Source: Limisphaerales bacterium
Lineage (GTDB): Bacteria; Verrucomicrobiota; Verrucomicrobiia; Limisphaerales; UBA1100
Length of the DNA: 64,000 nucleotides
Assembly: GCA_014382585.1 (NCBI GenBank)
Contig: JACNJL010000035.1
Span: forward strand, 3,756-67,755
Direction: 5' to 3'
In this document: positions 1,004 through 33,334 of the stretch, piece by piece
How the letters are laid out: each line of letters begins with the position of its first letter
Numbering within the stretch: the first letter of the stretch is position 1
Notes under the pieces: generated by a model
What the model was told of the DNA's origin: nothing
The model's input: only the letters and a program-made list of their open reading frames with translations
Database searches by the model: none
Translations under genes and position numbers: made by a program

Positions 1004-1012
1004 ATACTTTTG

Positions 1013-2262: not shown

Positions 2263-2319
2263 GCCACCTCTGAACTAATTATGGGAAACTCAAAAACTCA
2301 CGGATTCCAATTGTGAAAC

Positions 2320-6015: not shown

Positions 6016-6211
6016 TTGGGGAGTATATCGCAAGGCCACCAAACAAAAAAACTCAAATTTCACGAATGAGCTATTCGGCAGCACCCAGCAATCCAAACGC
6101 ACGCCCATGTGCATTCATGCGCGACAGTTTGAGAAACAATTGGTATAACTCGGCAGGTTAATCCTTTGAACATCCAAGCAAACAAGCAAATCTTTACGCC
6201 ATCATCCAGTT

Positions 6212-7843: not shown

Positions 7844-7973
7844 ATCAGCTTTGCCGGCTGCGCGAAAGACGCAGATGGGTGGGCGACCTGCACCTCGCCT
7901 TCCGCAAGGTTTCAAGATTGCCCACCTCTTTTTCCGGATCCAGCACCGGAACGTAATGCTTCTAAAGCCCAGT

Positions 7974-9191: not shown

Positions 9192-9213
9192 TGAGGTATA
9201 TTCAGGGACGACA

Positions 9214-16119: not shown

Positions 16120-16304
16120 TCTGAGTCAAAACTCATCAATCCGCTACTGATAGTCCAATTGAAAAACATACCTGACACTTCGGGGCTGAATGTCTCGCCG
16201 CTAATTGGGAATTCTAATGAAGTGTCCATTGCCCCAGCAACACAACCGAAAAAGAATATGAAAAACCGCTTGACATTCGAGCGGCGTACGTCAGTTTTTC
16301 CCCA

Positions 16305-17210
16305 ATGTTATCAAAGCAAAGACATATCAAACTGCTAATCATATCAATCGCTCTCTGTCAGGTTTTCAGCGGCAACCTGAGAGCTGAAAATGATTTTTTT
16401 GTTTTAGAATACGAGGAGGAAATCAACGATGACACGGGTTTAGTTGAGTATTTTGAAAGCGGGTTTTCATTAACACAGGGATTTTATGAACAAGCGGGGC
16501 TGATTAACAAATTTGGCGATTATATTGAAACGGGGCAATCTTCAGAAGGAGGCCAATACATTTCCTGGACACCACAACCCACTAGTCCTGAATTTTTTGA
16601 GACCTCCAATTTTACAAACACCATAAATCATATCAATTGGTTTAATGATAAGTCACTTGAAGAACAATTGATTGAAGGAATGAACGGCTACAATGACTTG
16701 GATAATTTTTTCATGTCCATTCTCATATTCAATAAAGTAGATTCGATTACCATAAATTTCTACCCGAAAGCATTAATAATTGAAGATGACCCCCTAAAAA
16801 ATGACCCAGTATTACATCAACAGGAAATCGAGATTACTCTCAAAAATAATAATAACGAACTGGAGTTCCTCCTTTCCCTCGATAAGCAAAAGGTTGACGC
16901 TGATGTTGTGGGGTTGCGGTTTTATTTAACAACAAAAATAAACGTTCGCGATTTACGCTTTAACGAAAGGGAGGATCTTAGCCATGAAGTAGAATTCGGT
17001 AAAGTTAGAACAGGATTCGGGAATGCTGTCTATGAGCCAGGCACCCAATATCGTTATAAACAACATTGGGCAGACGAGAAGTTTCCAAACAATGACAATA
17101 TCAACAGATTTGTATTTGGCGGCAGAATAAATGAACTTGATTTATTGTTTTGGACTCATTTTGAACTGAATGTTTTTTTAGTAAATTGGATAGAATCATG
17201 GATCGAATAA
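16305..17210 (+). CDS. Hypothetical secreted protein encoded in the AT-rich insert
   Basis: ATG start, N-terminal hydrophobic leader, Asn/Asp/Glu/Phe-rich composition. The sequence is strongly AT-rich relative to its flanks. Confidence 0.45.
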   Translation: MLSKQRHIKLLIISIALCQVFSGNLRAENDFFVLEYEEEINDDTGLVEYFESGFSLTQGFYEQAGLINKFGDYIETGQSSEGGQYISWTPQPTSPEFFETSNFTNTINHINWFNDKSLEEQLIEGMNGYNDLDNFFMSILIFNKVDSITINFYPKALIIEDDPLKNDPVLHQQEIEITLKNNNNELEFLLSLDKQKVDADVVGLRFYLTTKINVRDLRFNEREDLSHEVEFGKVRTGFGNAVYEPGTQYRYKQHWADEKFPNNDNINRFVFGGRINELDLLFWTHFELNVFLVNWIESWIE

Positions 17211-17599
17211 TCATTATTTGCTGCCTGTCATCAGGGTTAACACTAGGCTGCTTGAACATAGGCAATCAAGTGCATAAGCCTGAAGAGTTTTCAACAAAAC
17301 CCATCAAAAATGATTTTTCCGAGGTTGATGCGGAATTAGAAAGAAAGGTTCGCAACTTAGCTGAAGCCATCTACTTTCCTCGAGAGCTTAAAGATTTAGA
17401 TTTGGAAACAGCGACTGTCGAGGAAATTTATTTGGCTCAAAGATTTCCGATGCTTAGGGACAGCATGACAAACACAATGATAGAGAGTTTTCGGACCGAC
17501 AAATTTGTGACAGGCAGAGTTAGCAAGGCGGATTTAAACCATGTTATACAAAGATTGAAAGATGCCGAAAAAGCAGCTTTTGCGAAATGGGGGAAGTAG
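17198..17599 (+). CDS. Hypothetical small lipoprotein encoded in the AT-rich insert
   Basis: ATG at 17198 (the track's 17186 start is TTG). MDRIIIICCLSSGLTLGC is a lipobox-like leader. AT-rich. Confidence 0.4.
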   Translation: MDRIIIICCLSSGLTLGCLNIGNQVHKPEEFSTKPIKNDFSEVDAELERKVRNLAEAIYFPRELKDLDLETATVEEIYLAQRFPMLRDSMTNTMIESFRTDKFVTGRVSKADLNHVIQRLKDAEKAAFAKWGK

Positions 17600-17629
17600 T
17601 GAAACTAACCGGCGATTCCTAACGCCGCG

Positions 17630-17837: not shown

Positions 17838-19280
17838 TTAGGCCAAGATCTCTTTCACCACCCGTGTGGGATGCGTGTGAGTTAGTCGCTCGTGGAGTCC
17901 ATTGCGATCGAAGAAAAGTTTTTCATGGTTCATGCCGAGCTGGTGGAGGATGGTGGCATGCCAATCTTGAATGCTCACACGGTCTTTTACTGCCCCAAAA
18001 CCGATGTCATCGGTTTCGCCATACACAGTGCCGCCTTTCACGCCGCCACCAGCCATCCAGTTAGTAAATCCGCTCGGGCCGTGGTCGCGACCGGCCTTGG
18101 CATATTCACCCTGAGCCATCGGCAACCGACCGAATTCGCCTCCCCACAGAATAAGCACATCGTCGAGCAGTCCACGTTGCCGCAGATCACGCAGCAATCC
18201 GGCAGTGGGAAGATCGCTTTGTTTACAGGCAGCCGGCAAAGAAGTCTTGATGTTGTTGTGGTTATCCCACATTTGGCCTTTTGGATAAATTTGGATTAAT
18301 CGTACGCCTCGCTCCACCAACCGTCGCGCCATAAGGCAACGCTTGCCAAAATTATCCGTTTCCTTCCCGCCGATGCCGTACTGCTTACGCGTACTCTCCG
18401 TTTCTGTTGAAACATCCAGTGCTTCAGTAGCCTGCACCTGCATTCGTGCAGCCATTTGATAATTGGCAATGCGCGAATCAAGCACATGCTGGTTAGGGCG
18501 CTCTGCCTTGTGAATTCGATCAAGCGCGTTGATCAGGTTGTGCTTGGCAGCACTCACACCCGCGGGCTCTTTAAAATCCGGCTTGAGATGCAGCATTGGG
18601 GTGCCTTCACTCTTAATGGACGTGCCTTGAAACAGCGGTGGCAAATATCCGCTCATCCAGTTTTCCACGCCGTTTACTGGCAGTCGGTTTTGAGGATCAG
18701 CCAGCACTACGTAGGCGGGGAGATTCTGGTTCACGCTGCCGAGGCCGTATGTGATCCAAGATCCCATGGTCGGGTGACCGGGAAAGGTCTCACCACTTTG
18801 CCATTTATAACAAGCCGGCTCGTGATTTTCGTGCACGTTAAACATGGAGCGAATGACAGCAATATGATCCATTTCCTTTGCTGTCTCCGGCAGCAATTCG
18901 CTCACCCACGCGCCGCTTTGCCCATATTGTGCAAACTTCCAATGGCTACGCATGAGATGACCTTTCATGCTGCGACCAGCAGGCGCGACCTTGGTAAATT
19001 CCTCCGGCGCATCTTTACCGTGCAATGTTTCCAGTGCCGGCTTGGGATCAAACAAATCCACTTGCGACGGCCCACCCTGCATGCAGAATTGAATAACCGC
19101 CTTGGCGCGGGGCGCAAAGTGCGGCTGGCGTGGCTGGGTATCCGTAGGGAGAGCTGATTTGTGGTGCCGCTCCGTTCCATACAGATCACGAGTCAATAGT
19201 GAGGCCAGCGCCGCACCATAAAGACCGTCGCCCACGCGATCAAAAAATGTGCGGCGATTGATTTCGATCGAGTTCATCAT
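17838..19280 (-). CDS. DUF1501 (sulfatase-like) protein with Tat signal
   Basis: RRTFFDRVGDGLYGAALASLL leader, CMQGGPSQVDLFDPKP, GGEFGRLP…GRDHG. Confidence 0.8.
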   Translation of the reverse strand: MMNSIEINRRTFFDRVGDGLYGAALASLLTRDLYGTERHHKSALPTDTQPRQPHFAPRAKAVIQFCMQGGPSQVDLFDPKPALETLHGKDAPEEFTKVAPAGRSMKGHLMRSHWKFAQYGQSGAWVSELLPETAKEMDHIAVIRSMFNVHENHEPACYKWQSGETFPGHPTMGSWITYGLGSVNQNLPAYVVLADPQNRLPVNGVENWMSGYLPPLFQGTSIKSEGTPMLHLKPDFKEPAGVSAAKHNLINALDRIHKAERPNQHVLDSRIANYQMAARMQVQATEALDVSTETESTRKQYGIGGKETDNFGKRCLMARRLVERGVRLIQIYPKGQMWDNHNNIKTSLPAACKQSDLPTAGLLRDLRQRGLLDDVLILWGGEFGRLPMAQGEYAKAGRDHGPSGFTNWMAGGGVKGGTVYGETDDIGFGAVKDRVSIQDWHATILHQLGMNHEKLFFDRNGLHERLTHTHPTRVVKEILA

Positions 19281-21658
19281 TAGTCAACGTACAAAAATGC
19301 GGCGGAATTAAACAACGCGTGGCACACCGCCGACAGTGCTTTGTTGCGTTGGCCGGTTTCTTTTGCCGCCACGAATTGACGCTCCAGTTCCTGCATCGAT
19401 TTCGTCATTCCTAGCAGCTCTTTCTCTGACGGCGGTCGATTAATGATTTTGCGATACGCCAACCTGGTGGCCGCCTCGATGGTTTTGGCTTCTTTCTGAA
19501 TCTCCGAAGCCAGCTTGCGCGACAGCTCGTAAATCACTTTGTCATGCAATAAAAACAGTGGCTGCTGCACCACAGTGGAGTTGATACGGGTGACACAATT
19601 GGGGTTCATCGCCGGCAGATCAAACGTCTCCAACATTGTCATCATGTGTATGCGGCGTTGGCGAATATAAACACTACGGCGCCATCCCCCTTTCCCCGGC
19701 TTGCCCGTGACATAACCTCTTTCACGCACCTGCACATCATCAGGCTTGCCCCCCAAACGGATATTCAATTGACCGGTGATAGCAAGCAGTCCGTCGTGCA
19801 ATTCCTCCGCATCCAGCCGCCGCATACGCATGCGCGAAAGCCAGATGTTGTCGGGATCCTTTATCGCGGTAGTTTTGGCATTAAAAGAAGATTGCCGATA
19901 AGCGGTGCTGGTACAGATAAGGCGATGCAGATGCTTGGTGCTCCATTTGTTTTCGACCAACTCGATGGCCAGCCAGTCGAGCAACTCAGGATGCGTAGGC
20001 ACACTACCGAGTTTGCCAAAGTTATCCAGGCTCGCGACAATTCCCCGGCCGAAATGATGTTTCCAAATGCGATTCACCCACACCCGGGAGGTGAGCGGAT
20101 GATCCGGATTGGTCATCCACCGCGCCAGCGCCAGCCGGTTACCCGTCTTGTTTTTGCCCACCACTTTAGCAGGCTGGAAGGGGGTTTCTGAAAACACCCG
20201 TGGCAATGCCGGCCCTACCCGCGCCCCGGGGCTCCCGGGATTGCCGCGCAGATTCACATAAGTCGGGGAAGATTCACCTCGATCCCACAGCGCGCGAATG
20301 AGCGGCATAGTTTTCTTCTTTGCTTTCAGGTCGTCTATTTTCTTCTTCAACTCCTTGCGTTCCATTCCCTTTGCGGATGTGAAATTCTTCTCTAGTGGAT
20401 CCAACTCCTCTTTCAACTTCGCGTTGTAAGCCTCAATGGGTTTGCGTTCTTCAGGCAACGCCACCGGCAAATGCCGGCGTGTACTGCCTGCCCATTGATT
20501 TCTAAATGGCTGTGGTGTCAGCCAGTTGTACTCATCATATGAAGCTTTAAAGATGGCTGCGAAGGAATAGTAATCTCGCTGACTGATTGGGTCGTACTTG
20601 TGATCGTGGCAACGCGCACATTTCATGGTCAACCCCATCACGCCACCGGCGAGAATTTGCAATTCATCACCGATGACTTCAATTCGGTCCTCCACGCGGT
20701 TTACGGGATTAGCACTGGTGCCATCGGGGGCCATACGAAGGAATCCTGTGGCGACTAATTTCTCGATGACGTTTTCATCGATCGCCTCGGGGTCCGAATA
20801 ATCCACCAACTCATCACCGGCGATTTGCTCCACTAGAAAATCATTGTACGGCTTGTCGGCATTAAAAGAGTTGATGACGTAGTCGCGATATTTCCACGCG
20901 TAATCCCGAATCATGTCTGCATTGCGTTTGCCTTCGGAATCTGAATAGCCGGCTAGATCCAGCCAATGCCGCCCCCAACGCACCCCGTACGCGGGCGAAG
21001 CCAGCAGCCGATCTACAACTTTCATATAAGCCGTTGGGCTAGTGTCTTCTTCGAACGCCACCATCTCCGAAGGCGTGGGCGGAAGGCCAGTGAGGTCGTA
21101 GGTGACCCGCCGCAGCAACGTGTGCTTTGATGCTTCGGGCGAGTATCCCAGTTTTTGAATGGCCAGTTTTCTTAGCAGAAAAACATCGATAGGATTGCGA
21201 ATCTTGGATTGGGGGATGGCAACTGTTGGAATGGTCGGCCGTTTCGGGGGTTGAAACGCCCAATGATTGCGAGCTCCGGGTTTTAGCTTCACCGGCTTCA
21301 GCGTTTGCCATACTTCCGGTGCCCCAACACTGATCCAATCGCGCAGGGTTTTTAACTCGCTTGCACCCATGCGCTCAATACCGGCCATGCTGATGTTTTT
21401 ATCTGGCGGGCATTCACGCGAAACAATGCGCTGAATCATTTTACTTTCCGCCGGTTTCCCGGAAACAAATGCACCGCCAGCAAGCATGGTTGACTTGGTG
21501 CGCAGATCGAGCCCGCCCTCGCGTGCGTCCTGCCCATGGCACATCACACACCGCCGCAGCAACACCGGAATGGCGTCGTGCTGCGTGACCTTGGGTACGG
21601 CGGTTGCGGAAAGGGACAACAACACAACCGGCAGCCAATGATGGATTCGCAAATTCAT
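19280..21658 (-). CDS. PSCyt1/DUF1549/DUF1553 multi-domain protein (planctomycete cytochrome-c-like N-terminal domain)
   Basis: Signal peptide. CVMCHGQDAREGGLDL (PSCyt-type CxxCH). …DLTGLPPTPSEMVAFEED… (DUF1549). …KCARCHDHKYDP… (DUF1553). One nucleotide is shared between its stop and the start of the downstream DUF1501 gene. Confidence 0.8.
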   Translation of the reverse strand: MNLRIHHWLPVVLLSLSATAVPKVTQHDAIPVLLRRCVMCHGQDAREGGLDLRTKSTMLAGGAFVSGKPAESKMIQRIVSRECPPDKNISMAGIERMGASELKTLRDWISVGAPEVWQTLKPVKLKPGARNHWAFQPPKRPTIPTVAIPQSKIRNPIDVFLLRKLAIQKLGYSPEASKHTLLRRVTYDLTGLPPTPSEMVAFEEDTSPTAYMKVVDRLLASPAYGVRWGRHWLDLAGYSDSEGKRNADMIRDYAWKYRDYVINSFNADKPYNDFLVEQIAGDELVDYSDPEAIDENVIEKLVATGFLRMAPDGTSANPVNRVEDRIEVIGDELQILAGGVMGLTMKCARCHDHKYDPISQRDYYSFAAIFKASYDEYNWLTPQPFRNQWAGSTRRHLPVALPEERKPIEAYNAKLKEELDPLEKNFTSAKGMERKELKKKIDDLKAKKKTMPLIRALWDRGESSPTYVNLRGNPGSPGARVGPALPRVFSETPFQPAKVVGKNKTGNRLALARWMTNPDHPLTSRVWVNRIWKHHFGRGIVASLDNFGKLGSVPTHPELLDWLAIELVENKWSTKHLHRLICTSTAYRQSSFNAKTTAIKDPDNIWLSRMRMRRLDAEELHDGLLAITGQLNIRLGGKPDDVQVRERGYVTGKPGKGGWRRSVYIRQRRIHMMTMLETFDLPAMNPNCVTRINSTVVQQPLFLLHDKVIYELSRKLASEIQKEAKTIEAATRLAYRKIINRPPSEKELLGMTKSMQELERQFVAAKETGQRNKALSAVCHALFNSAAFLYVD

Positions 21659-21724: not shown

Positions 21725-23632
21725 TCAGGACAAACTGGTCGGTGCCTTCACAGTTGGCTCGGGTTCTGGCGAGCCACTCCAGGCCCATTTAGCGGCGCAA
21801 GCGATAAGGAGAAGGATCGCGGCCATGATAATAAGCAAGCTGCCCCAGCGAACTTGGAGGCCGGATTTGTCCGGATTGAGCACGGGCTGGAAATTGCGGC
21901 GGCTGGGGGGAATGACGAGCAACCAACCGCTCTCAGTTTTTTTGCCTTCAGTGAGGCAAATGCCCAACGCGAACAGACCAGACAGAATGCCCAACACAAT
22001 CCAAAATGGTTGATGGGAAGAATGCGGCCAAACAAACCAATCACAAATGATGGCGACCACGGAAGGGAACAATAAAATCTCAACCCATTGGCGCAGCAAA
22101 CGTGGGAAGCTTCGCAGTGCGGCCAAAGCCACGGTGACACCAAGTCCGGTGAGGGGGGCGATCCACCAGAGGTGCAGCCAATGAAAATGCCAGAAATGAA
22201 TCGCACCCGCGGCGGCGAGCAGCGTGGCGGCGGTGAGCAGCGGCACGTTGTAAAAGGGCAGTGTGCGAAATTGGCCGGGGCGCGTGCGAGGCAGCGGTTT
22301 GATATTTTTTTCCTTGGGGATGAGCTTGGCACCATTCCAAAAAAGTGCCACCACCATTCCGATGCCGAGCGACCACTTGAGCCAAAGATCCCACCAGTAA
22401 AAAATGGGATCCACGAATGACACGGAAACAACGGCGCCGAAAATCAATCCCATCAAAATGATGTGCCAGATTTTGCGCAAGGCAAAACGCGCGGGGGCTG
22501 AGTGTGTGGTGGAGGGTTGCACGGTGCGGTCTAGCGCGGGCATTAGGTTTATCCCCGCTGCGCCGAGAGCCATCACGAGCAGCCCAGCGATGCCCGTGCC
22601 CGCGAGTGACCACGGCGCTGCTGACCACGCGGAATAGGCCACTACTTCTCCGCCGGGCAATTCGAATTCCCAGCGCGTGGCATCCCAAACCAACACCGCC
22701 GCTCCCGTGGCGGCGGCGACGAGCACGAAGCCGCCTTGGGCGGCGAGGAAATGGCGGAAGCCGTGCCAGAAATCGATGTAGCCAGCTTTAGCAGCAGCTT
22801 GTTTTTCTTCGGATGTGGGGAACATTGAATCTTCCACGCGGCGCATTTGCAAACTGCCAAGGCCGAGCGCACAGCCAATGGAGAGGACAACCATCAAACG
22901 CCCGGTGAATCCGTCGGCGGGTTTGAATGTGTCCGCTGTTTCTGCCGGAGGTGTGACCGGTGACTTCGGCGTAACAGGCGGAATTGGGGTAATGATTTTG
23001 GGCGTCGTGGGGCCTTTGGCGATCTCGTCCGGCTTGGGTTTAGCGGATTGAGATTGAACGATGGCGGCGATCCATAAGCCGAGCACCACCAACGTAGCCA
23101 TACCGAGGCCGGTTCCGATGACGATTTTTTTGTGCTGCTTAATCCAATTCAAAAAAGTGGTCACGGTGGCAACTTCCGGCGTGGATTTGCGTTCGCGTTT
23201 GAAAACAAAACCGAAACTGATAATGAGCGTGCCCAACCCCAACACAAACAGCCAACCGACCGTGCCGTTTGTGACTCCGCCGCCGGCTTTTTGGGCAATG
23301 AGGACGATTCCCATCACAAAGGCCAACAGCGCGGAGGCGAGTGCGGTGGTGAAGAATGGCCGGGCTTTGATCCATGCCCACGTGGCGGAGGGGGCACGTT
23401 CTGGCTCCAGCTGCGGCTCGGGTTGAACAATGACCGGCTCGGGTTTGGCTACGGGGATTTCCTCCGCCACGGGCTGGCGGTTTTTCTCGAGCTGCGCCTC
23501 GAGAGCGGCGCGGAGTTTGTCGAGATCCACCGAGCCATCGGTGGGCAGGCGCAGCCGCAACTTCACATCACCCGCGCCCCTCGCTTTGGAACGGGCCGCT
23601 GTGTCACGAGGTTGATGTCGGGGTTTGGCCAC
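21725..23632 (-). CDS. Large polytopic membrane protein of unknown function, with a roughly 90-aa charged N-terminal cytoplasmic segment and a Pro/Thr/Val-rich linker
   Basis: At least 12 hydrophobic segments. Linker PTTPKIITPIPPVTPKSPVTPP. Its start lies 4 bp after the stop of the upstream PLD-family gene. Confidence 0.5.
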   Translation of the reverse strand: MAKPRHQPRDTAARSKARGAGDVKLRLRLPTDGSVDLDKLRAALEAQLEKNRQPVAEEIPVAKPEPVIVQPEPQLEPERAPSATWAWIKARPFFTTALASALLAFVMGIVLIAQKAGGGVTNGTVGWLFVLGLGTLIISFGFVFKRERKSTPEVATVTTFLNWIKQHKKIVIGTGLGMATLVVLGLWIAAIVQSQSAKPKPDEIAKGPTTPKIITPIPPVTPKSPVTPPAETADTFKPADGFTGRLMVVLSIGCALGLGSLQMRRVEDSMFPTSEEKQAAAKAGYIDFWHGFRHFLAAQGGFVLVAAATGAAVLVWDATRWEFELPGGEVVAYSAWSAAPWSLAGTGIAGLLVMALGAAGINLMPALDRTVQPSTTHSAPARFALRKIWHIILMGLIFGAVVSVSFVDPIFYWWDLWLKWSLGIGMVVALFWNGAKLIPKEKNIKPLPRTRPGQFRTLPFYNVPLLTAATLLAAAGAIHFWHFHWLHLWWIAPLTGLGVTVALAALRSFPRLLRQWVEILLFPSVVAIICDWFVWPHSSHQPFWIVLGILSGLFALGICLTEGKKTESGWLLVIPPSRRNFQPVLNPDKSGLQVRWGSLLIIMAAILLLIACAAKWAWSGSPEPEPTVKAPTSLS

Positions 23633-23635
23633 AGG

Positions 23636-24340
23636 TCAGCTAAAGTTGCGCCAGAGTTTGTCAAACATTCGGGTAAACGACTTGATTAAATCGGCATCGC
23701 CGGTGATGAGAAAATTTTCGTCGTTGTGCAACGAAGCGGAGCGGGTCCAGTTGTAACTGCCGGTGAGCAGTTTGGATTTGTCGAAGATGGCGAATTTGTG
23801 GTGCATGTGATGTTCGGACCGATCCATACGCACGGCGATGCCGGCGCGCTCGAGGCGCCTGATGTCCGAGCCGGCGTCCATCGATTTGTCGTCATCACTG
23901 ATGACGCGGATTTGCACGCGGCGGCGATGCGCTTTTTCAATGGCGCCGGCAATTCGATTGTCGGTGATGGTGAACACGCAAATATCCACCGAAGCGCGGA
24001 CTTGCGCCAAGCAATCGATGATTTTGCCAACGCAATCATCGTCGGGGCTGAAGAAGGCGGCGGCCGCATCGACTTTGCCGGTGTTGGGGATATTCTCGGC
24101 GGGGTGCAGGGTTTTGACGGTATTTTCAAGCCACTCCAAAACCTGATGGCGCTGACCGGCATCGGCTTTAGCCAGCGCCTCGCGCGCGGCATCGAAAGCC
24201 ATACTTCGATAAAGTGCGCGGCGCTGTTCGCTGCCGTTGATGGAATCGGTGAGCGTGCGGACCTCGTTGCGTTCGCTGCGGGATAGCTGGAAATCTTCCA
24301 GCGTCGATTGGAAGAGGGCTTTGACCTCGTGATCTTTCAT
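23636..24340 (-). CDS. Phospholipase-D-family (single HKD, Nuc-like) nuclease/phosphodiesterase with a roughly 90-aa N-terminal helical extension
   Basis: HHKFAIFDKSKLLTGSYNWTRSA is the H-x-K-x4-D-x6-G-S-x-N HKD signature. The upstream FFSPDDD…VFTIT…GVkVRVI-like layout matches the PLD/Nuc fold. Confidence 0.7.
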   Translation of the reverse strand: MKDHEVKALFQSTLEDFQLSRSERNEVRTLTDSINGSEQRRALYRSMAFDAAREALAKADAGQRHQVLEWLENTVKTLHPAENIPNTGKVDAAAAFFSPDDDCVGKIIDCLAQVRASVDICVFTITDNRIAGAIEKAHRRRVQIRVISDDDKSMDAGSDIRRLERAGIAVRMDRSEHHMHHKFAIFDKSKLLTGSYNWTRSASLHNDENFLITGDADLIKSFTRMFDKLWRNFS

Positions 24341-24513: not shown

Positions 24514-25326
24514 ATGGCCAAGTTTATTAAAAATCTGAAATCAAAAGTCGAACACTACAAAACCAAGGCGGAGGAAATTCGCGCGATGGTTGAAGAGGGA
24601 GCGGAAACGATTCGCGAAATTCGCAGCGACGTGGAAAGCACAGTGGACGATTTGAAAGCGGACAGCGAAGAAAAGATGATGGAGAGCCTGGAAAAAATTC
24701 AGGACGCCGAGCGGGTTTTCAAAGAGGCCGGTTACAAACTGCAGGCGGTGCGGTTGGAGATGGGGTTTAACCCCAAGGTGGTTTCGGTGCTGCGGCGCGA
24801 ATCGGCAATCAACGCGCGCAAACAGGAACGCCTACTCCAACAGCACGCGGACAACAAGCTCTTGAGCAGTATGCTGAATTCGCTTTTCAAGGCCGAGGCG
24901 TTGGAGGACAAAGTGCATCTTCGCCGGTTGACGTTTCACGAAGTGCAAATCGAGGTGGGCGTGGTGCCGGCAGTACACGTGGTTTGGGAGGACAAAAACA
25001 GCGTGACACTGACCCCCACTGCGGCGGCGGAAAAAGAACCCGCCTACAGCAGCCCGTTCACCAGCAGCAGTTCATTTACAAGCGGCAGTTCATTTACAAG
25101 CGGCAGCTCGTCATTCCCGCGCAGTTCGTTTGCGGAAGATGTCGAGGTTGAAGAAGAAACCACGGACCTTGAGCCAACACCTCAGCCTGAACCCGCCGAG
25201 GCCCCGGTGGAAGTCGCCGCGGTGGAGGGAGATTTTGCTGCGCCGACGGTGTCTGCCTCCGCGCGGGATCCAGAGGATGACAAGTGGACAAGCTTCCCGG
25301 ACATCTCATTTCCAGGGAGTAAGTAG
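24514..25326 (+). CDS. Hypothetical protein with an N-terminal coiled-coil, an internal Ser/Phe/Thr tandem repeat and an acidic Pro/Glu-rich C-terminus
   Basis: ATG start with a GC-typical codon pattern. The SSSFTSGSSFTSGSS repeat is encoded by tandem agttcatttacaagcggc units. Convergent with the giant AAA+ gene. Confidence 0.45.
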   Translation: MAKFIKNLKSKVEHYKTKAEEIRAMVEEGAETIREIRSDVESTVDDLKADSEEKMMESLEKIQDAERVFKEAGYKLQAVRLEMGFNPKVVSVLRRESAINARKQERLLQQHADNKLLSSMLNSLFKAEALEDKVHLRRLTFHEVQIEVGVVPAVHVVWEDKNSVTLTPTAAAEKEPAYSSPFTSSSSFTSGSSFTSGSSSFPRSSFAEDVEVEEETTDLEPTPQPEPAEAPVEVAAVEGDFAAPTVSASARDPEDDKWTSFPDISFPGSK

Positions 25327-25357: not shown

Positions 25358-28300
25358 TTACCCTCCTTTGCTATCTGCGGGCGGTTCCTGTTGCTGCGCT
25401 TCCTGCAATTGAGCGAGGAGTTGTTGGATGAGGGCGTCACTGTCCTGCACCATATCCTGGCTGACATCGACAACCACTTCAGTGGGCTGAGCGGCGTCGA
25501 GGCGTTCACGCAGTTCGCGATGGCGTTCCTGATAGTTGGCGAAGAGCACGCCAATCTTCGACAGCGCCGCCTGCATTTGGTTGGCCTGCGTTTGGGATTG
25601 TGAATCGCGGATGGTATCAGCGAGCGTGACGTTGCTTTGCTCAATGAATTCGGCCAACGCCATTTGGCGGTCGGCGAGGGCGGATTGGCTTTCCTGTGTG
25701 GCGGCGGCTGCGGTGCTGGATTGCTCCAGATATTTCTCAAATGCGCCGCGCAAGGCGGTGAGATTTTCGTTGGTTGCGTCGCTCGGCACTGTGCCCTCGG
25801 TGGGGGTGGGTGCGGCGGTTTGCTGGCCGGAAAGGTGCTGGGAAATCGTATCACGAAGGGCATCGAGGCTTTCGTTCATCCCGCCCAGATCGAGCTGGGT
25901 GGTCCGGGGTTTAGAAAGCTCTTCTTTTAGCGTGCCTTGGATGGCATCAAGACCACCGGTGAAGAGTGAGAGCTGGCTGACCACGCGGCTGACAGGATCG
26001 CCTTGGTCGCCGCCCTGCAGGAATTGATTCCGGCCATAGGTTTTTTTGATATCCTCCCAACGCGCTTCCTCGTCTTCGGTCATCACCCCGATGAGCTGCT
26101 TGAATTTCAGGAAGTTTGCCTCTGCGCCAGTGGTGAGTGTTTGGCTTTCGCCTTTGTAATGGTCGAGCACGAGATCCATCAGCTCCTGATCATTCATAAT
26201 CGCCAACACCTTTTCGGCGAGGCGATTCATATTGCGATAGGAGCCCTGCATCTTGAAGGCCGGTTCGGTGCGGAATTCATCCGCTTGCCCGGCGCTCTCA
26301 ATGTACAACTGATTTACTTTCAAAACCACATCGCGCAGTACGGTGAGTTTTTTGAGGACGTTGAGTAATTCCTCGGTTTCATTCGCGGAATAACTTCCCT
26401 GTAACTCGATGCCCTCGCGTTGGCCGGTCTCGGCCATCCGAATAAACGCTTGAATATCTTTTTGTGCTGCCTTGGCGAGCGGTTGCAAAACGGGATTGGA
26501 GGTGATGGCATTCTCAATGTAGCTGCCGTTGAACGCTTCCTCGCGCCCCTTCATATCGTCGCCGAGATTGTATGTGTCAGCACGGTTGGCGAGCATATCG
26601 GGGATGCGGAATTTCTCGCCGCTCTCGGTGTACGGGTTGCCGGCCATCACGACGACGACGCGGCGACCGCGCATATCGTAGGTTTTGGGTTGACCGCGCC
26701 AGACACCCTCGATTTTGCGCTGGGCGTCACAGAGCGAAATAAATTTCTGCAAAAACTCCGGGTTGCAGTGCTGAATGTCATCCAAGTAAATCATCACGTT
26801 ATCGCCCATCTCCAGTGCGAGATTGAGTTTATTGACTTCCGCGCGCGCGCCGGCGTTGGGGGCATCCTCGGGATCCAGCGACCCCACTTCGTGGCCCAGC
26901 GCCGGCCCGTTGATTTTCATAAAAATCAGGCCCATTCGATTGGCGAGATATTCCATCAACGTGGTTTTGCCATAACCGGGCGGAGAGATGAGTAGCAGCA
27001 AGCCCATCAAATCCGTGCGCTTGCCTTCGCCGGTGACGCCAATTTGCTTGGCAAGATTGTCGCCCACGATCGGCAGGTATACAGTGTCCACCAATTGATT
27101 GCGCACGAAGGAGGACAGCACGCGCGGCTCAAATTCGTGCAGGCGCAACACTTCTTTTTCGTCTTCGATGAGTTTTTGTTTCAACTCCTGATACTGCTCA
27201 AAACGCGGCACGCTTTCGCGTGCGAAGCGGCCGAGCTTCTCCTGAAACACAAGATAATCAAAATCGTAACTACCTTCCTGCACCGCATCGTGCGCGCCCT
27301 GCAGACCGGTGATGGCCTGAGCGGTAGCAGCTTTCACCACGGCTTGTTTGTGATGATGGCCGCAGAAAATCAACGCAGCGACTTCCTCGAGATATTTATT
27401 TTCGCCGTTGCGCGTGAGCAGGAAGCCGCGCACCCAATCGCGCACGAGCTGATAATGACTGTGCGGATTGGCCTTGAGCGGTTTCTGCGCTTTGTCAAAT
27501 TCGGCTTCGCTGCCTTTCTTGACGAGATGCCGCTCAAATTCAGTGAGCAATTGATCCGCTTCCTGACTGACGGCCCAATCTTTGCCATTCGTAATTTCGT
27601 AAAATAAATATTCGCCCGCGGGCGCGGCATCTTCTTCGGGGAACAAAACGGTGTCCGTGACAAAACCCGCCACCAATTCCTGCAGCGCCACGATATATTC
27701 GCGCTGCGTGGGATCGCCGGGGAACAGCTCGTTACGTTTGGCGAAGCCTTCGAGTTTGGCGGCCCAAAGTTTGCGCGTGTCCTCGGGACAAAAGTGATGC
27801 CAATAAACCGCGCCGCACGCCCGTACGCGGGGATGATAGCGCGCCAGCTGCAGGGCGGCGTGGGTGTTGAGCAGCGCGGCGAGAATCTTGGCCGCGTCCT
27901 GATCGTGAATGCCTTTGGTGTACGCCTCGGCGTAGCGGTCGCCCATGAAATCCTGCACGAGTTTGAGGCGGTCGGCGGCCTTCATCGCGGCGACTTCGGC
28001 GAGACGTTCGCCGCTTTCGTGCTCGAGTTTCTGCCAAAGCAAATAGGCGAGATATTCGGCGCGGTAAATTTCGCGGTCTTCGCTGATAACCTGTTGCTCC
28101 CACACTTCGCGCGTGGCGAGGAAAGCCTCGTCCTCGATGGGGTCGAAATACTGGGTGCCGGTGAGGTGCAAATTCTGCTCGTCGCCCCGGCGCACGATGG
28201 TGAGGTCCAGCGGTTGGGTGTTTACGGCGAATTTGTGTTTGCCGAACTGGATAACGTTTTGGCCGTCGACGTAGAGTTCTTTTTTGTCTTTGAGCTGGCG

Positions 28301-30862
28301 AACGGCTTCCTCGTGGATGGATTTGAGCTGGGACTGGATGCCCTCCGCTTCGCCGGCTTTTTCAAGTTCGGTGAGTTCCTTCACGCGTTCGCGGATGGAA
28401 TCGATCATCCGATCGGCCGCCATGTAGCCGTTGATGTCGTTGACGTCGTCGAAGGTGCCGAGTTTGTGCTCCACGCTCTTGAGCATGCGTTCGGCGGAAG
28501 ACACCAGCGCGGTGGCTTTGCGGTTGCGGGCTTCTTCGAGTTGCAGCCGTTTTTGCTCAAAGGCGGCTTCGAGTTCGCCGCGTTTTTCGTCAAGTTGCTC
28601 GATGTACTCCGGAAAATCCGCGAAGTCGCCGCCTAAATCCTCGAGCTGATTGATGACGTTATTAAAATATCCGTCGCATTTTTCCGGCGAGTCGGACATA
28701 TCCAGATAATTTACCGCCGTTTGGCTAAGCAATAAAATCTGGGCATTAAACTGCGCGGCACCCTCGGCGCTCATCAGCGTGCGAGATTTGTTTTTGAGCG
28801 CTTCTTTCACCTGATTCACCACCTGATAAATTGCGGTGATGGATTCGATGATGCGAGTCTGCTCGGTCGTGTCATCGATTTGCAAACTGCGCACGATGTC
28901 GATGAGCATTTCGAGGTCTTCACCCGCCTGAGTGATTTCCGCATTCAACTCTTTGGCCTCGGCCATTTTGGTGACGCCCTCGACTTGGCTACGCTGTTCG
29001 TCAGCGCGTTCGCGATAGGGATCCAGCGCCTCGGGTTGCAGCAGAAATTGGACGCACGATTGCGAAAGCGTTTCCACTTGCTCCTTCACCTCCGCTTCTA
29101 GGGAGTCCATCGCAGCGGTGTTGATGAAGCGCACCTCGTCTTTGAGCGTGATGATTTCCCCGCGCATTCGGCGCAGTCCGCCGAGGTTGGCCACGAAATC
29201 ATCGACCGACCGGAAATCCGCGCGGAGGACTTGATTGAACAACGTCTTGGCGCGCTTTTGGATTTCATCGGCCTTTTCTTTGGCGTCGAGGCGGAGGCGT
29301 CGCACTTTGTCAAACTCGGCGATGGCCTTCTCAGCGGAGCTGCCGATCTCTTTTAGAATTTCCACTACGCTGCCGCCATCGCCGGAGGTCAGCCACGCGT
29401 ATGAATTGGGGATACTTTCACAACGGCGCGCCACATCGGCGTAGAGATCGGCATAGGGCGATTCTTTTTGGATGAGAATGAGCACCTCATTGCACTCGGC
29501 CATCGCGCGTACTACGGATTTGTTGCCCACTTGGTACAGGAACGATTCGCGGTTGCCGCTTTCCGGTTCGAAACCGGGTTGATAAAATGGCGTTTGGCGC
29601 AGTTGAATCGTGTGATGTTTGATGGCCTCTTCCTCGGCGCGGAAGCTCACGAGGTCGCCATTGGGGAACAGTGAGAACCCGTGGCACGTGATGCGCTCGG
29701 TGACCTCCTGTTCGATGAGCCGATAAGGCATCAGCGCGTAGAGACCGGTCATTCGGTTGAAAAAAACATACAAAAAATCCTCGCCGTTGGGTGATGACAC
29801 CGTGCGTTCGAGCACCATCTCTCCCAGCTCACCCTCGTAGCGTTTCAGCTCGCCGGTTTGCAAGTAGTAGCCGTCGGGGAAAATTAAGCCATGCTCTTCG
29901 GGCAACATTACGCACGATTGCCCCAGCGTATCCACGCGATGCACGGCTTGAAGTTTTTCGTTGAAAATAAAATAGCGCGTTTGCTTTTCGCGATAGGGCG
30001 TCATCTTCAGCAAAATCAACGAGCCTTGGATGGCGTATTGAATTTCGGCATCGCCCACTTTTTGATTCGCGTCCACTACCTCCTCGGCGTAGATACCTTC
30101 GCCGGTGGCGGTGTTGTCCTCCACTTTGATCGTGAGATCGCCGCCCACGCATTCCACAAACACGCGGTCCTCGATGGATACGTGCGGGTTGTCTCCGTGC
30201 CGAACCGCACTACTCGCCGGAGTTTTCCACTGAAAATTATACTGGCCGGGAAAGCCTTGGCGAAGATAGTCCGGCGCGCTGCGGTCATCCTCGTAAACCA
30301 GCTCGCCATCTTTGTAGAGCCACTTGAACACCGTCACATCATCCACCATTTTGCCGGTGCGAAACACCATGTAAAGGTGAACCCCAATTATGGCGAACCG
30401 GTGGAACGTGGCGGATTGATCAATTTTGAAAAGACGCGAGAACGATTCTTTGAAATGTTCGTCCTGCAACAACGTGAGATCGCCCTCGTGAAACGTCTGC
30501 GCCTCGGCGTCATATTCAAATACGCTGAACACATCGCTCAACTGCCCTTGCTTGAGGCCGAGGTTCACATTGAAACCAAACAGGAACCGATTGTGGCCGA
30601 GCTGAATCATATCGCGCGGCTCGCAATTGAGCTGCGTGGACACGCGATCCATTTTCTTCAACTCCAGCTTGCGCGTGCCAAAGACTTCCGCGCGTTGCTC
30701 GTCGAGCGTGCCCAATCGCTCGCGCAACACCTTGGCCTGATCAGTCAGGCGTTGCTTGATGAGATCGTACGCGCCGCCTTCCAGCGCGGTTGATGCGCCT
30801 TCCGCGGGGGTGCCACTGTCGCCACTGTCAGGAGGTTCCGCCATCGGGAATTTGGAATCCAA
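25358..30862 (-). CDS. Giant (1834 aa) coiled-coil protein with a central MoxR/AAA_5-like AAA+ ATPase module
   Basis: Walker A LLLISPPGYGKTTLMEYLANRMG. Walker B/sensor region VMIYLDDIQHCNPEFLQKFISLCDAQRKIEGV resembles the MoxR-type DEINRA…LLEAM…G motif. Long heptad-like Glu/Lys/Ala/Gln-rich stretches lie before and after. The start is 33 bp downstream of the flotillin stop. Confidence 0.65.
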   Translation of the reverse strand: MDSKFPMAEPPDSGDSGTPAEGASTALEGGAYDLIKQRLTDQAKVLRERLGTLDEQRAEVFGTRKLELKKMDRVSTQLNCEPRDMIQLGHNRFLFGFNVNLGLKQGQLSDVFSVFEYDAEAQTFHEGDLTLLQDEHFKESFSRLFKIDQSATFHRFAIIGVHLYMVFRTGKMVDDVTVFKWLYKDGELVYEDDRSAPDYLRQGFPGQYNFQWKTPASSAVRHGDNPHVSIEDRVFVECVGGDLTIKVEDNTATGEGIYAEEVVDANQKVGDAEIQYAIQGSLILLKMTPYREKQTRYFIFNEKLQAVHRVDTLGQSCVMLPEEHGLIFPDGYYLQTGELKRYEGELGEMVLERTVSSPNGEDFLYVFFNRMTGLYALMPYRLIEQEVTERITCHGFSLFPNGDLVSFRAEEEAIKHHTIQLRQTPFYQPGFEPESGNRESFLYQVGNKSVVRAMAECNEVLILIQKESPYADLYADVARRCESIPNSYAWLTSGDGGSVVEILKEIGSSAEKAIAEFDKVRRLRLDAKEKADEIQKRAKTLFNQVLRADFRSVDDFVANLGGLRRMRGEIITLKDEVRFINTAAMDSLEAEVKEQVETLSQSCVQFLLQPEALDPYRERADEQRSQVEGVTKMAEAKELNAEITQAGEDLEMLIDIVRSLQIDDTTEQTRIIESITAIYQVVNQVKEALKNKSRTLMSAEGAAQFNAQILLLSQTAVNYLDMSDSPEKCDGYFNNVINQLEDLGGDFADFPEYIEQLDEKRGELEAAFEQKRLQLEEARNRKATALVSSAERMLKSVEHKLGTFDDVNDINGYMAADRMIDSIRERVKELTELEKAGEAEGIQSQLKSIHEEAVRQLKDKKELYVDGQNVIQFGKHKFAVNTQPLDLTIVRRGDEQNLHLTGTQYFDPIEDEAFLATREVWEQQVISEDREIYRAEYLAYLLWQKLEHESGERLAEVAAMKAADRLKLVQDFMGDRYAEAYTKGIHDQDAAKILAALLNTHAALQLARYHPRVRACGAVYWHHFCPEDTRKLWAAKLEGFAKRNELFPGDPTQREYIVALQELVAGFVTDTVLFPEEDAAPAGEYLFYEITNGKDWAVSQEADQLLTEFERHLVKKGSEAEFDKAQKPLKANPHSHYQLVRDWVRGFLLTRNGENKYLEEVAALIFCGHHHKQAVVKAATAQAITGLQGAHDAVQEGSYDFDYLVFQEKLGRFARESVPRFEQYQELKQKLIEDEKEVLRLHEFEPRVLSSFVRNQLVDTVYLPIVGDNLAKQIGVTGEGKRTDLMGLLLLISPPGYGKTTLMEYLANRMGLIFMKINGPALGHEVGSLDPEDAPNAGARAEVNKLNLALEMGDNVMIYLDDIQHCNPEFLQKFISLCDAQRKIEGVWRGQPKTYDMRGRRVVVVMAGNPYTESGEKFRIPDMLANRADTYNLGDDMKGREEAFNGSYIENAITSNPVLQPLAKAAQKDIQAFIRMAETGQREGIELQGSYSANETEELLNVLKKLTVLRDVVLKVNQLYIESAGQADEFRTEPAFKMQGSYRNMNRLAEKVLAIMNDQELMDLVLDHYKGESQTLTTGAEANFLKFKQLIGVMTEDEEARWEDIKKTYGRNQFLQGGDQGDPVSRVVSQLSLFTGGLDAIQGTLKEELSKPRTTQLDLGGMNESLDALRDTISQHLSGQQTAAPTPTEGTVPSDATNENLTALRGAFEKYLEQSSTAAAATQESQSALADRQMALAEFIEQSNVTLADTIRDSQSQTQANQMQAALSKIGVLFANYQERHRELRERLDAAQPTEVVVDVSQDMVQDSDALIQQLLAQLQEAQQQEPPADSKGG

Positions 30863-30895
30863 CCCATCTGGCCGAAGCCGGATGGGGAATTGGAT

Positions 30896-33106
30896 TTATT
30901 TCGCCGCCTTATCGCCCAGCAACACGCCGGAGATCATATCGCCGATGCCGGATTCTTTCACCGCCTTTTGCGCCTGACGGATCACCGATTTCGTGCCGCC
31001 GTCATCCGCTTGGCTCACTAACTTGGTGAGCAGCGCTGAGATGGTGAGATTTTTCACGTCCTCGCTGGAGACGCCCAGATCCTTCACCCAACCGCGAAGT
31101 TGGGTTTTGAAATAATCGGGGTCGCCGTTGAAGAAGGTGTTCTTCACGTCGGTGATGGATTGGCTGTTGTTCACGAGGCGGTCGACCGATTTGCCGTAGC
31201 TCACCGAGCGCACGACCTTCTCGAAGAAGTCGTTCTCGCCGCCGACGATGTCGATGTTCGCGCTCTTGAGCGCTTCGCCCACCACGCGCGCCTGCGCTTC
31301 GGCCACATCCTTTTGGATTTGGATTTCGGCCAAATCCACGTCGCGGTCCTTGTTGAGTTGCAGTCGGAATTCTTCGTGATCCTGCGAGGCTTTGTTGAAG
31401 ATCTCGATGGCTTTTGCCATTTCGGTTTTGGACACCGCCTGCGCGAGGCCCATTTTTTCAGCGCCGGCCGCTTCGGCGGCTTTCACCGCGTCGATCGCTT
31501 TGCCTTCGCCCTCGCCTTCCGCCGCCTTGGCAAGGCCGCTCGCCTCGCCTTGTTTGGCCATCACTGAGGCTTCGGCCATGCCTAAAGCTTGTTCGGCTTC
31601 AGCGTCCGCTTTCTTTGCATCCGCCTTGGCGATGGTCACGCGGGCCTCGGCCAAACCATCGACACTCCGCATTGCCGCTGTGCCTTCGGCTTCCTGTTGC
31701 ATGGCGTGGTTGCGTTTCTCGCTGGCCTTGGCTTCCGCCTCGGCGATGGTGATGATCTCGTCGGCTTTCTTTTCTGCCGCTTGTTTCGAAGATTCGGCGG
31801 AGGTGACCTCCAGATACAAATCCTTGTCGGCAATTTCCTTTTGCGCCCGATGTTGGGCCTCGGCCATTTTCACTTCCTCCACCAAAGACGCTTCGGCTTT
31901 GGCGGTGGCTTCCACCATTAGCACGCGTTTGGCGCGGTCGGCTGACATATCGGCCTCCACATCCAACCGGCCTTGGTGTTGGGTGGTGACTTCCTTTTCT
32001 TTGGATTCCAAACCGGCCTTGCTCTCGGCCACTTCAAAGGCGGCCGCGATGATCTTGGCTTCCTTCTCCTGCTGCATCAGGCCGATGCGCCGCAAGCGAT
32101 CCACCTCGGCTTGTTCGCCGGATTCAATTTTCTCCTGCTCCAAGCGCAGCAAATCTTGATCCTTCGCGTACGTGGCACTCATGACCACACGATCCTGTTC
32201 CACCTTGCGTTCCTCGATGTGCTGGCTGGCCTCGATCTCAGCCTTCTCGGAGACCTCACGATTTTTCTGCACCTCCACCTGCGCCGCCGCGCCCTCACGG
32301 GCCTTGGCCTCTTCCACGGCGCGGGTTTGCTTGGCTAAATCTTCTTCGTTTTGTTTGTCCAACTCGCGTTTCTCCATTTCGGCGCGGATGTTGTCGTTCT
32401 TAATTTCAACATCCTTTTCCTGCGTGCGCTTGTTGGTTTCCTCCTCTTTTTGGGCGGTGATGCGGTTGATTTTTTCAATACCCTGCGCGTCAAGCACGTT
32501 GGCAGGGTCGTGATCTTCGCGGGCGGTTTGCTCCAAATAATCAATCGCCACGTCCTCCAGTTTGTAGCCGTTGAGATCCTCGCCAATTTCTTTGACAATC
32601 ATATCCCGAAATTGGGAACGCTGAACATAAAGCTGATCAAAATCCATTTGCTTGCCGGCCGCCTTCAAGGCATCGGAGAATTTCGCCTCAAACAAATTGC
32701 GCAGCAATTCGATTTCAGAAGCACGTTCACAACCCACCGCTTCAGCCACTTCCTTAATGTTTTCTACCTCCGGTGCCACGCGCACATAAAATGCCACCTC
32801 GATGTCTGCGCGGATGTTGTCCTGGCAAATTAGGCCGTCCTTGCCTTTCCGCGCCACCTCCAGTTTCTTCACCTGAATATCCATAATATCCCAGCGATTC
32901 AGGAAAGGAAACCGGAACATCCAATCCTTGGTGACCTTGAGCCCGCCAACACCCGTCCGCACACCGGCCTCGCCGGCCCGAACTTTTTTCAGGCAAAACA
33001 TGGAAAGAAACGCAAGGATAAGCAGGGATAAGCCAATGACGATGGCCGCCACCACACCGGCGGCAAGACCGCCAAGACTGATAAAACTAAGAACAGGTTG
33101 GATCAT
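30896..33106 (-). CDS. Flotillin/SPFH (band-7, YqiK-like) membrane protein with a greatly extended Ala/Glu/Lys coiled-coil tail
   Basis: N-terminal TM helix (LGGLAAGVVAAIVIGLSLLILAFL). SPFH core (…GGLKVTKDWMFRFPFLNRWDIMDIQV…ADIEVAFYVRV…). EA-rich flotillin repeats. YqiK-like C-terminal end (…NIDIVGGENDFF…). Start re-derived to the ATG at 33104-33106. Confidence 0.75.
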   Translation of the reverse strand: MIQPVLSFISLGGLAAGVVAAIVIGLSLLILAFLSMFCLKKVRAGEAGVRTGVGGLKVTKDWMFRFPFLNRWDIMDIQVKKLEVARKGKDGLICQDNIRADIEVAFYVRVAPEVENIKEVAEAVGCERASEIELLRNLFEAKFSDALKAAGKQMDFDQLYVQRSQFRDMIVKEIGEDLNGYKLEDVAIDYLEQTAREDHDPANVLDAQGIEKINRITAQKEEETNKRTQEKDVEIKNDNIRAEMEKRELDKQNEEDLAKQTRAVEEAKAREGAAAQVEVQKNREVSEKAEIEASQHIEERKVEQDRVVMSATYAKDQDLLRLEQEKIESGEQAEVDRLRRIGLMQQEKEAKIIAAAFEVAESKAGLESKEKEVTTQHQGRLDVEADMSADRAKRVLMVEATAKAEASLVEEVKMAEAQHRAQKEIADKDLYLEVTSAESSKQAAEKKADEIITIAEAEAKASEKRNHAMQQEAEGTAAMRSVDGLAEARVTIAKADAKKADAEAEQALGMAEASVMAKQGEASGLAKAAEGEGEGKAIDAVKAAEAAGAEKMGLAQAVSKTEMAKAIEIFNKASQDHEEFRLQLNKDRDVDLAEIQIQKDVAEAQARVVGEALKSANIDIVGGENDFFEKVVRSVSYGKSVDRLVNNSQSITDVKNTFFNGDPDYFKTQLRGWVKDLGVSSEDVKNLTISALLTKLVSQADDGGTKSVIRQAQKAVKESGIGDMISGVLLGDKAAK

Positions 33107-33334
33107 AATTTTCTCCGAAACAGTTGAGTTGTTAATTGCACAAACATATTGCGACACAGGACACCGCGCGCGTTGGAGTACCGCCCGGGGAAGCAGTGCG
33201 TGGTGTCGAGGCGAGAATACACAATTCCCCCGAAGGCGCGCCACTATAATCTTTAAGAAAGATTATAATCGCTCAATGCCAAAAACCCCAAAAAACCGGT
33301 GGCACATTACCCGATGGCGAGTTAGGTTCTCTCA

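Follow-up and report, generated by a model that had tools for sequence, protein, structure and literature searches.

The closest described counterparts of the locus analysed here are the operons reported by Ravi et al. (2024, mSystems 9:e00847-23; PMC11237479; bioRxiv 2020), in which CesT/Tir, PspA, YqiJ/YuaF, a band-7/flotillin protein and an ATPase are encoded together. The ATPase of these operons was described as a combination of a beta-propeller, a coiled coil and an AAA+ domain. A phospholipase D (PLD, HKD) hydrolase is added in some Proteobacteria, and abbreviated operons, still furnished with YqiJ/YuaF, were noted that may work with PspA encoded elsewhere. The description is purely computational, with a Dokdonia context listed in the supplementary table. 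Other relatives are yqiJ-yqiK of Escherichia coli and yuaF-floT of Bacillus subtilis (SPFH2 + NfeD2); E. coli YqiK mutants show almost no phenotype (Hinderhofer et al. 2009, PMC2636767). Here we analyse a flotillin gene and the gene of a giant AAA+ ATPase that are encoded side by side in a 64,000-nucleotide stretch of DNA from a Limisphaerales bacterium (Verrucomicrobiota; contig JACNJL010000035.1), hereafter called the window.

With a probability of roughly 0.6, we consider the locus to be a shortened version of an envelope-stress module that is widespread and horizontally mobile and whose core comprises a YqiK-type flotillin and an ATPase of the DUF3686 family. Its likeliest role would be that of an ATP-driven envelope-stress or membrane-remodelling machine operating on flotillin scaffolds. 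Sequence comparison confirmed that the ATPase of the Ravi et al. operons and that of the window belong to the same family, since three loci retrieved in this study (L064, L073, L074) carry CesT_Tir_1 and PspA_IM30 genes before YqiJ, flotillin and the DUF3686 ATPase. An earlier sequence-only reading of the window had put the gene pair forward as an undescribed system. This claim could not be upheld, as the operon type had been published by Ravi et al. (preprint 2020) and L073 and L074 show the same ATPase family. The window shares with these operons the flotillin architecture (transmembrane segment, band-7 domain and coiled coil), the ATPase family and the PLD accessory gene. It differs in that CesT, PspA and YqiJ/YuaF are missing from the 64 kb and in that an inverted 270-aa gene restricted to Verrucomicrobiota (orfX) stands between the PLD gene and the ATPase gene. 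Compared with the abbreviated operons, which keep YqiJ/YuaF, a flotillin–ATPase pair without YqiJ represents a further reduction. Judged by its gene content, the window thus holds a reduced variant of the computationally described module, devoid of YqiJ, PspA and CesT, with PLD retained and orfX added. With the E. coli and B. subtilis loci, the window has in common a flotillin that is detectably homologous to YqiK, and a YqiJ homologue stands upstream in other lineages of the module; unlike the window, E. coli K-12 yqiJK has no ATPase gene downstream.

Gene layout and conservation of the pair

Both genes lie on the minus strand, as the sequence-only reading had it. The flotillin gene (30896..33106, minus strand; 736 aa, YqiK-like, SPFH2 type) was assigned by Pfam, BLASTP and public gene calls. 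It is followed by a spacer (30845..30895, minus strand) that extends from the flotillin stop codon to the ATG of the ATPase gene and was delimited from the sequence and the gene calls. The ATPase gene (25358..30844, minus strand) encodes a giant soluble AAA+ ATPase of 1828 aa, characterised here by Pfam, AlphaFold2 and Foldseek and listed in databases as 'DNA repair ATPase'. The lengths of 782 and 1834 aa and the 33-bp spacing given previously had to be corrected: they derive from mechanical open reading frames (ORFs) at 30896..33244 (GTG start at 33244) and 25358..30862 (TTG start at 30862), whereas the ATG starts at 33106 and 30844 are used by public gene calls on identical contigs and by database protein P0001, which is 100% identical to the window ATPase. 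With proteins of 736 and 1828 aa, the spacer therefore measures 51 nt and not 33. A terminator scan found no terminator-like site in it. The pair is flanked upstream by a divergent thioredoxin-PDZ gene and downstream by the convergent orfX. The closest genome match was a Verrucomicrobiia (Limisphaerales) metagenome-assembled genome (MAG) with 96% protein identity.

A one-genome-per-species scan turned up relatives of the ATPase at no fewer than 576 loci. The best 80 originated from Verrucomicrobiota, Planctomycetota, Bacteroidota, Desulfobacterales and Calditrichia. Among the 80 loci, tblastn with the flotillin detected a full-length homologue, directly upstream and in the same orientation, in essentially every one that offers 2.3 kb or more of upstream sequence. 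The same order was found on annotated replicons, namely pQBR103 of Pseudomonas fluorescens, Streptomyces and Deinococcus plasmids, Vibrio campbellii and Proteus mirabilis, and the pairing spans Verrucomicrobiota, Planctomycetota, Bacteroidota, Pseudomonadota, Actinomycetota and Deinococcota. The one clear exception was L067 (a Cytophagales MAG, 6000-10000), where no flotillin gene precedes the ATPase gene despite ample upstream DNA. The region upstream of the ATPase gene in L067 looks fragmented and contains short ORFs, including an AbiEii fragment that adjoins the ATPase gene; the short ORFs suggest rearrangement or assembly errors. In Pontibacter (L046 8578-9910, Pontibacter virosus; also L040 and L052), two genes are inserted between flotillin and ATPase, one encoding a DMP19-like protein (E 6e-28) and the other a 186-aa protein without a match. 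Furthermore, pairwise identities of the flotillins and of the ATPases were strongly correlated across 49 loci (r = 0.88), a value reached by none of 999 Mantel permutations. The presence of flotillin upstream of the ATPase in essentially every locus with enough flanking sequence bore out the functional pairing proposed in the sequence-only reading, and on these comparative grounds we regard flotillin and the giant ATPase as a conserved functional pair. Chance adjacency of the two genes was rejected in view of the synteny conserved across loci.

Flotillin

The assignment of the upstream gene to the SPFH/flotillin family held, with a Band_7 (SPFH) domain at residues 41-190 (Pfam E 6e-11) and 29% identity to E. 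coli YqiK over 454 aa (BLASTP E 3e-38), the alignment extending through the coiled-coil region. Hydropathy analysis indicated a single N-terminal hydrophobic anchor (residues 1-44) with the SPFH domain after it. The long Ala/Glu/Lys-rich region noticed before was likewise recovered, only its length having been overstated: within the roughly 370 residues of the helical region (251-620), Ala, Glu and Lys make up 46%. Band_7 was the sole Pfam report for the protein; neither Pfam Flot (PF15975) nor any NCBIfam model matched, and a sequence search of the Protein Data Bank (PDB) returned no solved structure at E ≤ 0.01.

The window flotillin is about 180 residues longer than YqiK. We aligned it with ATPase-linked flotillins from Bacteroidota, Planctomycetota, Pseudomonas, Streptomyces, Deinococcus, Vibrio and Proteus as well as with YqiK. 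A C-terminal segment, 'HEEFR...IVGGE...GK.VD', was common to all eight ATPase-linked flotillins aligned, which represent six phyla (window 30896-31400, minus strand; alignment columns ~640-760), and its 'HEEFR' part corresponds to a gap in E. coli YqiK. From this distribution, the segment is a candidate docking site for the ATPase.

Architecture of the giant ATPase

The Pfam scan of the ATPase was dominated by DUF3686 ('ATPase involved in DNA repair'; residues 46-488, E 1.7e-153), followed by DUF7902 (residues 611-694, E 1.5e-22). AAA, AAA_5, AAA_22 and RuvB_N gave weak matches at about residues 1274-1413 (E 1e-6 to 3e-4), and no transmembrane segment was found by hydropathy. Membership in a well-studied family with no tie to flotillin was not found: the protein falls into a named Pfam family (DUF3686 + DUF7902), but an uncharacterised one. 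A search with the N-terminal domain against 1.84 billion representative proteins yielded 622 clusters at E ≤ 1e-3, and the full-length relatives among the 150 matches listed measured about 1600-1930 aa.

Two AlphaFold2 models were computed from 84-sequence alignments, covering residues 7-700 and 690-1834. The first (predicted local distance difference test, pLDDT, 85) shows an N-terminal helix, a beta-rich domain at ~60-420 and subsequent helical bundles. The second (pLDDT 76) begins with helical hairpins (690-863) and a small beta domain (870-908) and continues with a compact all-alpha domain (934-1167) and an AAA+ alpha/beta core with lid at ~1299-1620; at the C-terminus, a disordered stretch precedes one long low-confidence helix (~1698-1790). 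The helical bundles, which include DUF7902, are spectrin-like with helices of at most ~52 residues. This series of domains indicates a multidomain protein and not an ATPase flanked by long coiled coils. The previous description of an ATPase core embedded between very long coiled-coil regions was thus only partly right, and it had overlooked the beta-propeller-like DUF3686 domain.

Foldseek comparison of the 7-700 model with the PDB retrieved beta-propellers (E 7e-7 to 1e-3, 6-12% identity), among them Elp1, IFT-A, the clathrin terminal domain, prolyl oligopeptidase, neuraminidase and WD40 proteins. The DUF3686 domain is therefore predicted to adopt a beta-propeller-like fold. For the all-alpha domain (934-1167) and the small beta domain, Foldseek gave no match. 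As the propeller matches include proteins in which a propeller is followed by helical repeats (the clathrin heavy-chain terminal domain and linker, IFT-A subunits, Elp1), a structural role was considered, in which propeller and helical repeats would form a coat-like or cytoskeletal lattice on flotillin domains and the AAA+ module would serve solely as an assembly switch. Coat-like proteins have been reported in the Planctomycetes–Verrucomicrobia–Chlamydiae (PVC) group, to which the host belongs. The matches are, however, generic fold-level similarities with low TM-scores, the DUF3686 ATPase family is not PVC-specific, and the catalytic AAA+ motifs are very highly conserved, which speaks for an enzymatic core function. 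We hence regard a purely structural role as quite improbable.

AAA+ module

The motifs expected of an AAA+ enzyme were all located (1828-aa numbering): Walker A with K1293, Walker B with D1355-D1356, sensor-1 N1403, the arginine finger R1421 and sensor-2 R1537. The motifs quoted in the sequence-only reading, GYGKTT and IYLDDIQHCNPEFL, are both present in the ATPase. SPPGYGKT, DDIQH, GNPYTE.G..F.IPDML.NRAD and LQGSYRNMN were invariant in eight proteins from six phyla, and the catalytic motifs were likewise invariant in 84 closer homologues. In every member examined across the six phyla, Walker B reads Asp-Asp and not the usual Asp-Glu (window ~26777-26782, minus strand).

By sequence, PDB matches of the AAA+ region were confined to the surroundings of Walker A in p97/VCP/Cdc48 (E ~1e-6). 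By structure, the Foldseek ranking was led by RuvB, followed by CbbQ, NorQ, dynein, Mdn1, MCM and PspF, all at E > 1e-3, with CbbQ and NorQ below RuvB at E 0.02-0.2. Foldseek searches with AlphaFold models, proposed earlier as a check, were thus rewarding for the N-terminal part with its propeller matches and returned weak AAA+ matches only for the core. The earlier designation as MoxR/AAA_5-type is only approximate. The AAA_5 match is weak (E 1.4e-6) and equals that of the generic AAA family, RuvB ranks ahead in Foldseek, and no gene for a VWA-domain partner was found in the neighbourhood of the ATPase gene. The module shares with MoxR, CbbQ, NorQ and RuvB the pattern hhhDx(I)xH/R ... NP ... 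(D)R and a GSxR sensor 2; it departs from them in the weakness of the matches, the missing VWA partner and the Asp-Asp Walker B, and the AAA+ core accounts for only ~7% of the 1828-aa multidomain protein. The AAA+ module is a divergent one, with RuvB, MoxR-type ATPases and dynein as its nearest structural neighbours.

Taken at face value, the database names 'DNA repair ATPase' and 'ATPase involved in DNA repair' (NCBI and the Pfam description), the leading position of RuvB in Foldseek and the weak RuvB_N match in Pfam would suggest a RuvB-like action on DNA, with the adjacency to flotillin being incidental. However, the RuvB matches reflect the generic AAA+ fold only, CbbQ, NorQ, dynein and MCM being comparable, and the NCBIfam RuvB models scored 19-23 bits against cut-offs of 282-299. 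The Pfam scan of the ATPase showed no DNA-binding domain. Moreover, the ATPase gene was invariably linked to genes for membrane proteins, with no DNA-repair genes nearby. In the literature, no experiment behind the name and no paper naming DUF3686 or PF12458 was found. A function in DNA repair is accordingly hard to credit.

Accessory genes and genomic context

Apart from YqiJ, PLD and orfX, all-against-all clustering of the ORFs of the 80 loci revealed no conserved neighbours of the pair. PSCyt/PSD1, a 635-aa membrane protein, a racemase and ABC-F, which formed the other clusters, were set aside as lineage synteny.

A YqiJ/NfeD-like gene for a membrane protein of ~210 aa is located directly upstream of flotillin in 44 of 84 loci; the protein gave weak Pfam YqiJ_N matches and matched E. 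coli YqiJ with E 9e-7. No such gene was found in the window's clade or anywhere in the 64-kb window. The statement in the sequence-only reading that the known flotillin partners are small NfeD/YqiJ proteins was consequently incomplete, as most other lineages have a YqiJ-like gene ahead of this flotillin–ATPase pair. In L073 (Parvicellaceae) and L074 (Roseivirga), the YqiJ-like gene, flotillin and the DUF3686 ATPase are immediately preceded by genes for CesT_Tir_1 (E 3e-58 and 4e-54, respectively) and PspA_IM30 (E 6e-41 and 4e-41), and the modules adjoin a divergent helix-turn-helix (XRE-type) regulator, which in L074 also contains an S24 peptidase domain. L064 has CesT_Tir_1 and PspA_IM30 upstream in the same manner. 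CesT/PspA adjacency was observed in only 3 of 84 loci and, as a PspA cluster, on pQBR103, where the module is preceded by PspA, rhomboid, DUF2491, DUF350, DUF1190 and glutathionylspermidine synthase genes. Further envelope-related neighbours were a TelA (toxic anion resistance) gene after the PLD gene in Vibrio campbellii (L088 13554-14612) and a LemA + TPM-domain pair divergently upstream of the module in Proteus mirabilis (L089 2693-4473).

The second accessory gene (23636..24340, minus strand) encodes a single-HKD PLD-family protein of 234 aa, identified by Pfam PLDc_2 (E 8e-29) and PDB search. Its closest solved relative is the mitochondrial cardiolipin hydrolase (mitoPLD/PLD6/Zucchini; 9lkx, E 8e-30; 4ggj, E 2e-28), to which it aligns over the whole catalytic domain including the HKD motif. 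In contrast to mitoPLD, a soluble helical N-terminal extension of ~100 residues takes the place of the mitochondrial transmembrane anchor, and its putative substrate may be a lipid or a nucleic acid. PLD orthologues accompany the module in Verrucomicrobiota, Planctomycetota, Bacteroidota and Vibrio, where they occupy three different positions. The Vibrio campbellii orthologue is full-length, 40% identical and overlaps the ATPase stop codon. In the window's clade the gene lies downstream of the ATPase gene; five Pirellulaceae loci have it ahead of the YqiJ-like gene, and in Roseivirga it is next to the regulator. Given this recurrence, PLD is, as far as gene neighbourhoods tell, an accessory gene of the flotillin–ATPase module.

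The third gene, orfX (24514..25326, plus strand; tblastn and public gene calls), encodes a 270-aa protein without a family match; Pfam, too, gave none. It consists of a helical N-terminal part, a small alpha/beta core and a disordered Ser/Pro/Glu tail. In the window it is convergent with the ATPase gene and lies between ATPase and PLD; it is also inverted among loci L001-L016, while in more distant Verrucomicrobiota (L010, L012, L014, L071) tblastn placed it right behind the ATPase gene and in the same orientation. orfX is probably a lineage-restricted accessory component.

The recurrent context, comprising YqiJ/NfeD, PspA/CesT, TelA, LemA/TPM and the cardiolipin-hydrolase-like PLD, points as a whole to the cell envelope. 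A competing explanation is an anti-phage or conflict system, in which flotillin and ATPase would sense infection-induced perturbation of the membrane and PLD would act as a nuclease or membrane-damaging effector in abortive infection. The patchy distribution across phyla would agree with such a system, as would the carriage on megaplasmids (pQBR103) and on Streptomyces, Deinococcus and Hymenobacter plasmids. PLD/Nuc-family proteins are nuclease effectors in some defence systems, and Nuc and NucT are detectable relatives of the window PLD; the DMP19-like gene inside the Pontibacter operon and the AbiEii fragment next to the ATPase gene in L067 can be added on this side. However, the PLD is far nearer to cardiolipin hydrolase than to Nuc (E 4e-9), and the recurrent partners PspA, CesT, TelA and LemA/TPM are envelope-stress genes. 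Neighbours in the window and at most loci are housekeeping or lineage-syntenic genes and do not form defence islands, and an AAA+ core so highly conserved across phyla is atypical for fast-evolving defence genes. A scan of flotillin and ATPase against PADLOC-DB 2.0 gave no match. The defence function that had been suggested as one option thus gained no positive support, and we judge it unlikely. Membrane remodelling or repair, the other option, fits the context of PspA/IM30, CesT, YqiJ, the mitoPLD-like PLD, TelA and LemA/TPM.

Proposed mechanism

SPFH cages are known to pair with AAA+ enzymes, as in HflK/C-FtsH and prohibitin–m-AAA protease. In analogy to these complexes and to Vps4 acting on ESCRT-III/PspA-type polymers, our best model would see the ATPase as an AAA+ remodelling motor in the cytoplasm, docking on flotillin assemblies that are anchored in the membrane. 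The likeness to HflK/C-FtsH and prohibitin–m-AAA would be one of principle, i.e. an SPFH scaffold coupled to an AAA+ ATPase at the membrane. Compared with HflK/C-FtsH and prohibitin–m-AAA, the window ATPase has neither a protease domain nor a transmembrane segment, and its AAA+ domain resembles the FtsH/classical type in the Walker A region only. Its predicted location is the cytoplasm and not an enclosure on the periplasmic side.

Anchored by its N-terminus, the flotillin may use its long helical region to oligomerise, forming an SPFH ring or cage at the cytoplasmic face of the inner membrane, as HflK/C and flotillin structures would suggest. The ATPase would oligomerise through its single AAA+ module, and its beta-propeller and spectrin-like arms would dock it on flotillin, perhaps at the C-terminal segment specific to ATPase-linked flotillins. 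ATP hydrolysis would then assemble, disassemble or remodel the scaffold and its clients, among which PspA/IM30 polymers encoded elsewhere may be found. The mitoPLD-like hydrolase, judged by homology, could act on cardiolipin or another phospholipid in the same microdomain.

Several points weigh against this proposal. Relatives of mitoPLD/Zucchini can be nucleases instead of lipases. The structure predictions of the ATPase are monomers. The Asp-Asp Walker B of all members makes the rate of hydrolysis uncertain, and the stretch from Walker A to Walker B shows no evident aromatic pore loop, which renders a threading-unfoldase mechanism unlikely. The correlation between flotillin and ATPase identities could merely mirror a shared species phylogeny. 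In the 64-kb window, tblastn with PspA and CesT queries from L073 and L074 gave no match (all E > 0.4); with YqiJ missing as well, any link to PspA would therefore have to act in trans. Finally, the sole publication found on the flotillin–ATPase pairing, Ravi et al. (2024), is a work of comparative genomics.

A more far-reaching version would unite flotillin, ATPase and mitoPLD-like hydrolase in a so far unrecognised ATP-driven machine for lipid-microdomain remodelling. SPFH cages would be gripped and reshaped by a hexameric, long-armed motor, with local conversion of cardiolipin to phosphatidic acid taking place alongside. The assembly would be the prokaryotic equivalent of the eukaryotic machinery for membrane fusion and repair, and in the lineage of the window it would operate without NfeD/YqiJ or cis-encoded PspA. 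We put this version forward tentatively and consider it doubtful.

Other features of the window

Three nucleotides past the PLD stop codon begins the gene of a polytopic membrane protein of 635 aa (21725-23632, minus strand) without a Pfam match, which is kept only in the window's clade (L001-L006, L009, L013, L016). A PSCyt1/PSCyt2/PSD1 protein of 792 aa (19280-21658, minus strand) and a 480-aa ORF (17838-19280, minus strand) follow, the counterpart of the latter on the identical contig L085 being a DUF1501 protein. Two low-GC islands (window 1-2300 and 16300-17600; 41-43% GC compared with ~57% elsewhere) encode ORFs of 313, 126, 255, 301 and 137 aa without Pfam matches and possibly represent recently acquired DNA. 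Rfam and tRNA scans of the window revealed no RNA genes.

Conclusions

The flotillin–ATPase module is widespread and mis-annotated. The label 'DNA repair ATPase', attached to the DUF3686 family with its several thousand sequences, is unsupported and probably misleading. Bacterial flotillins have been widely studied, yet their molecular job is unclear, and a dedicated ATPase together with a cardiolipin-hydrolase-like enzyme offers concrete biochemical handles. These partners could reveal the function of flotillin scaffolds and tie it to PspA/ESCRT-III-like membrane repair.

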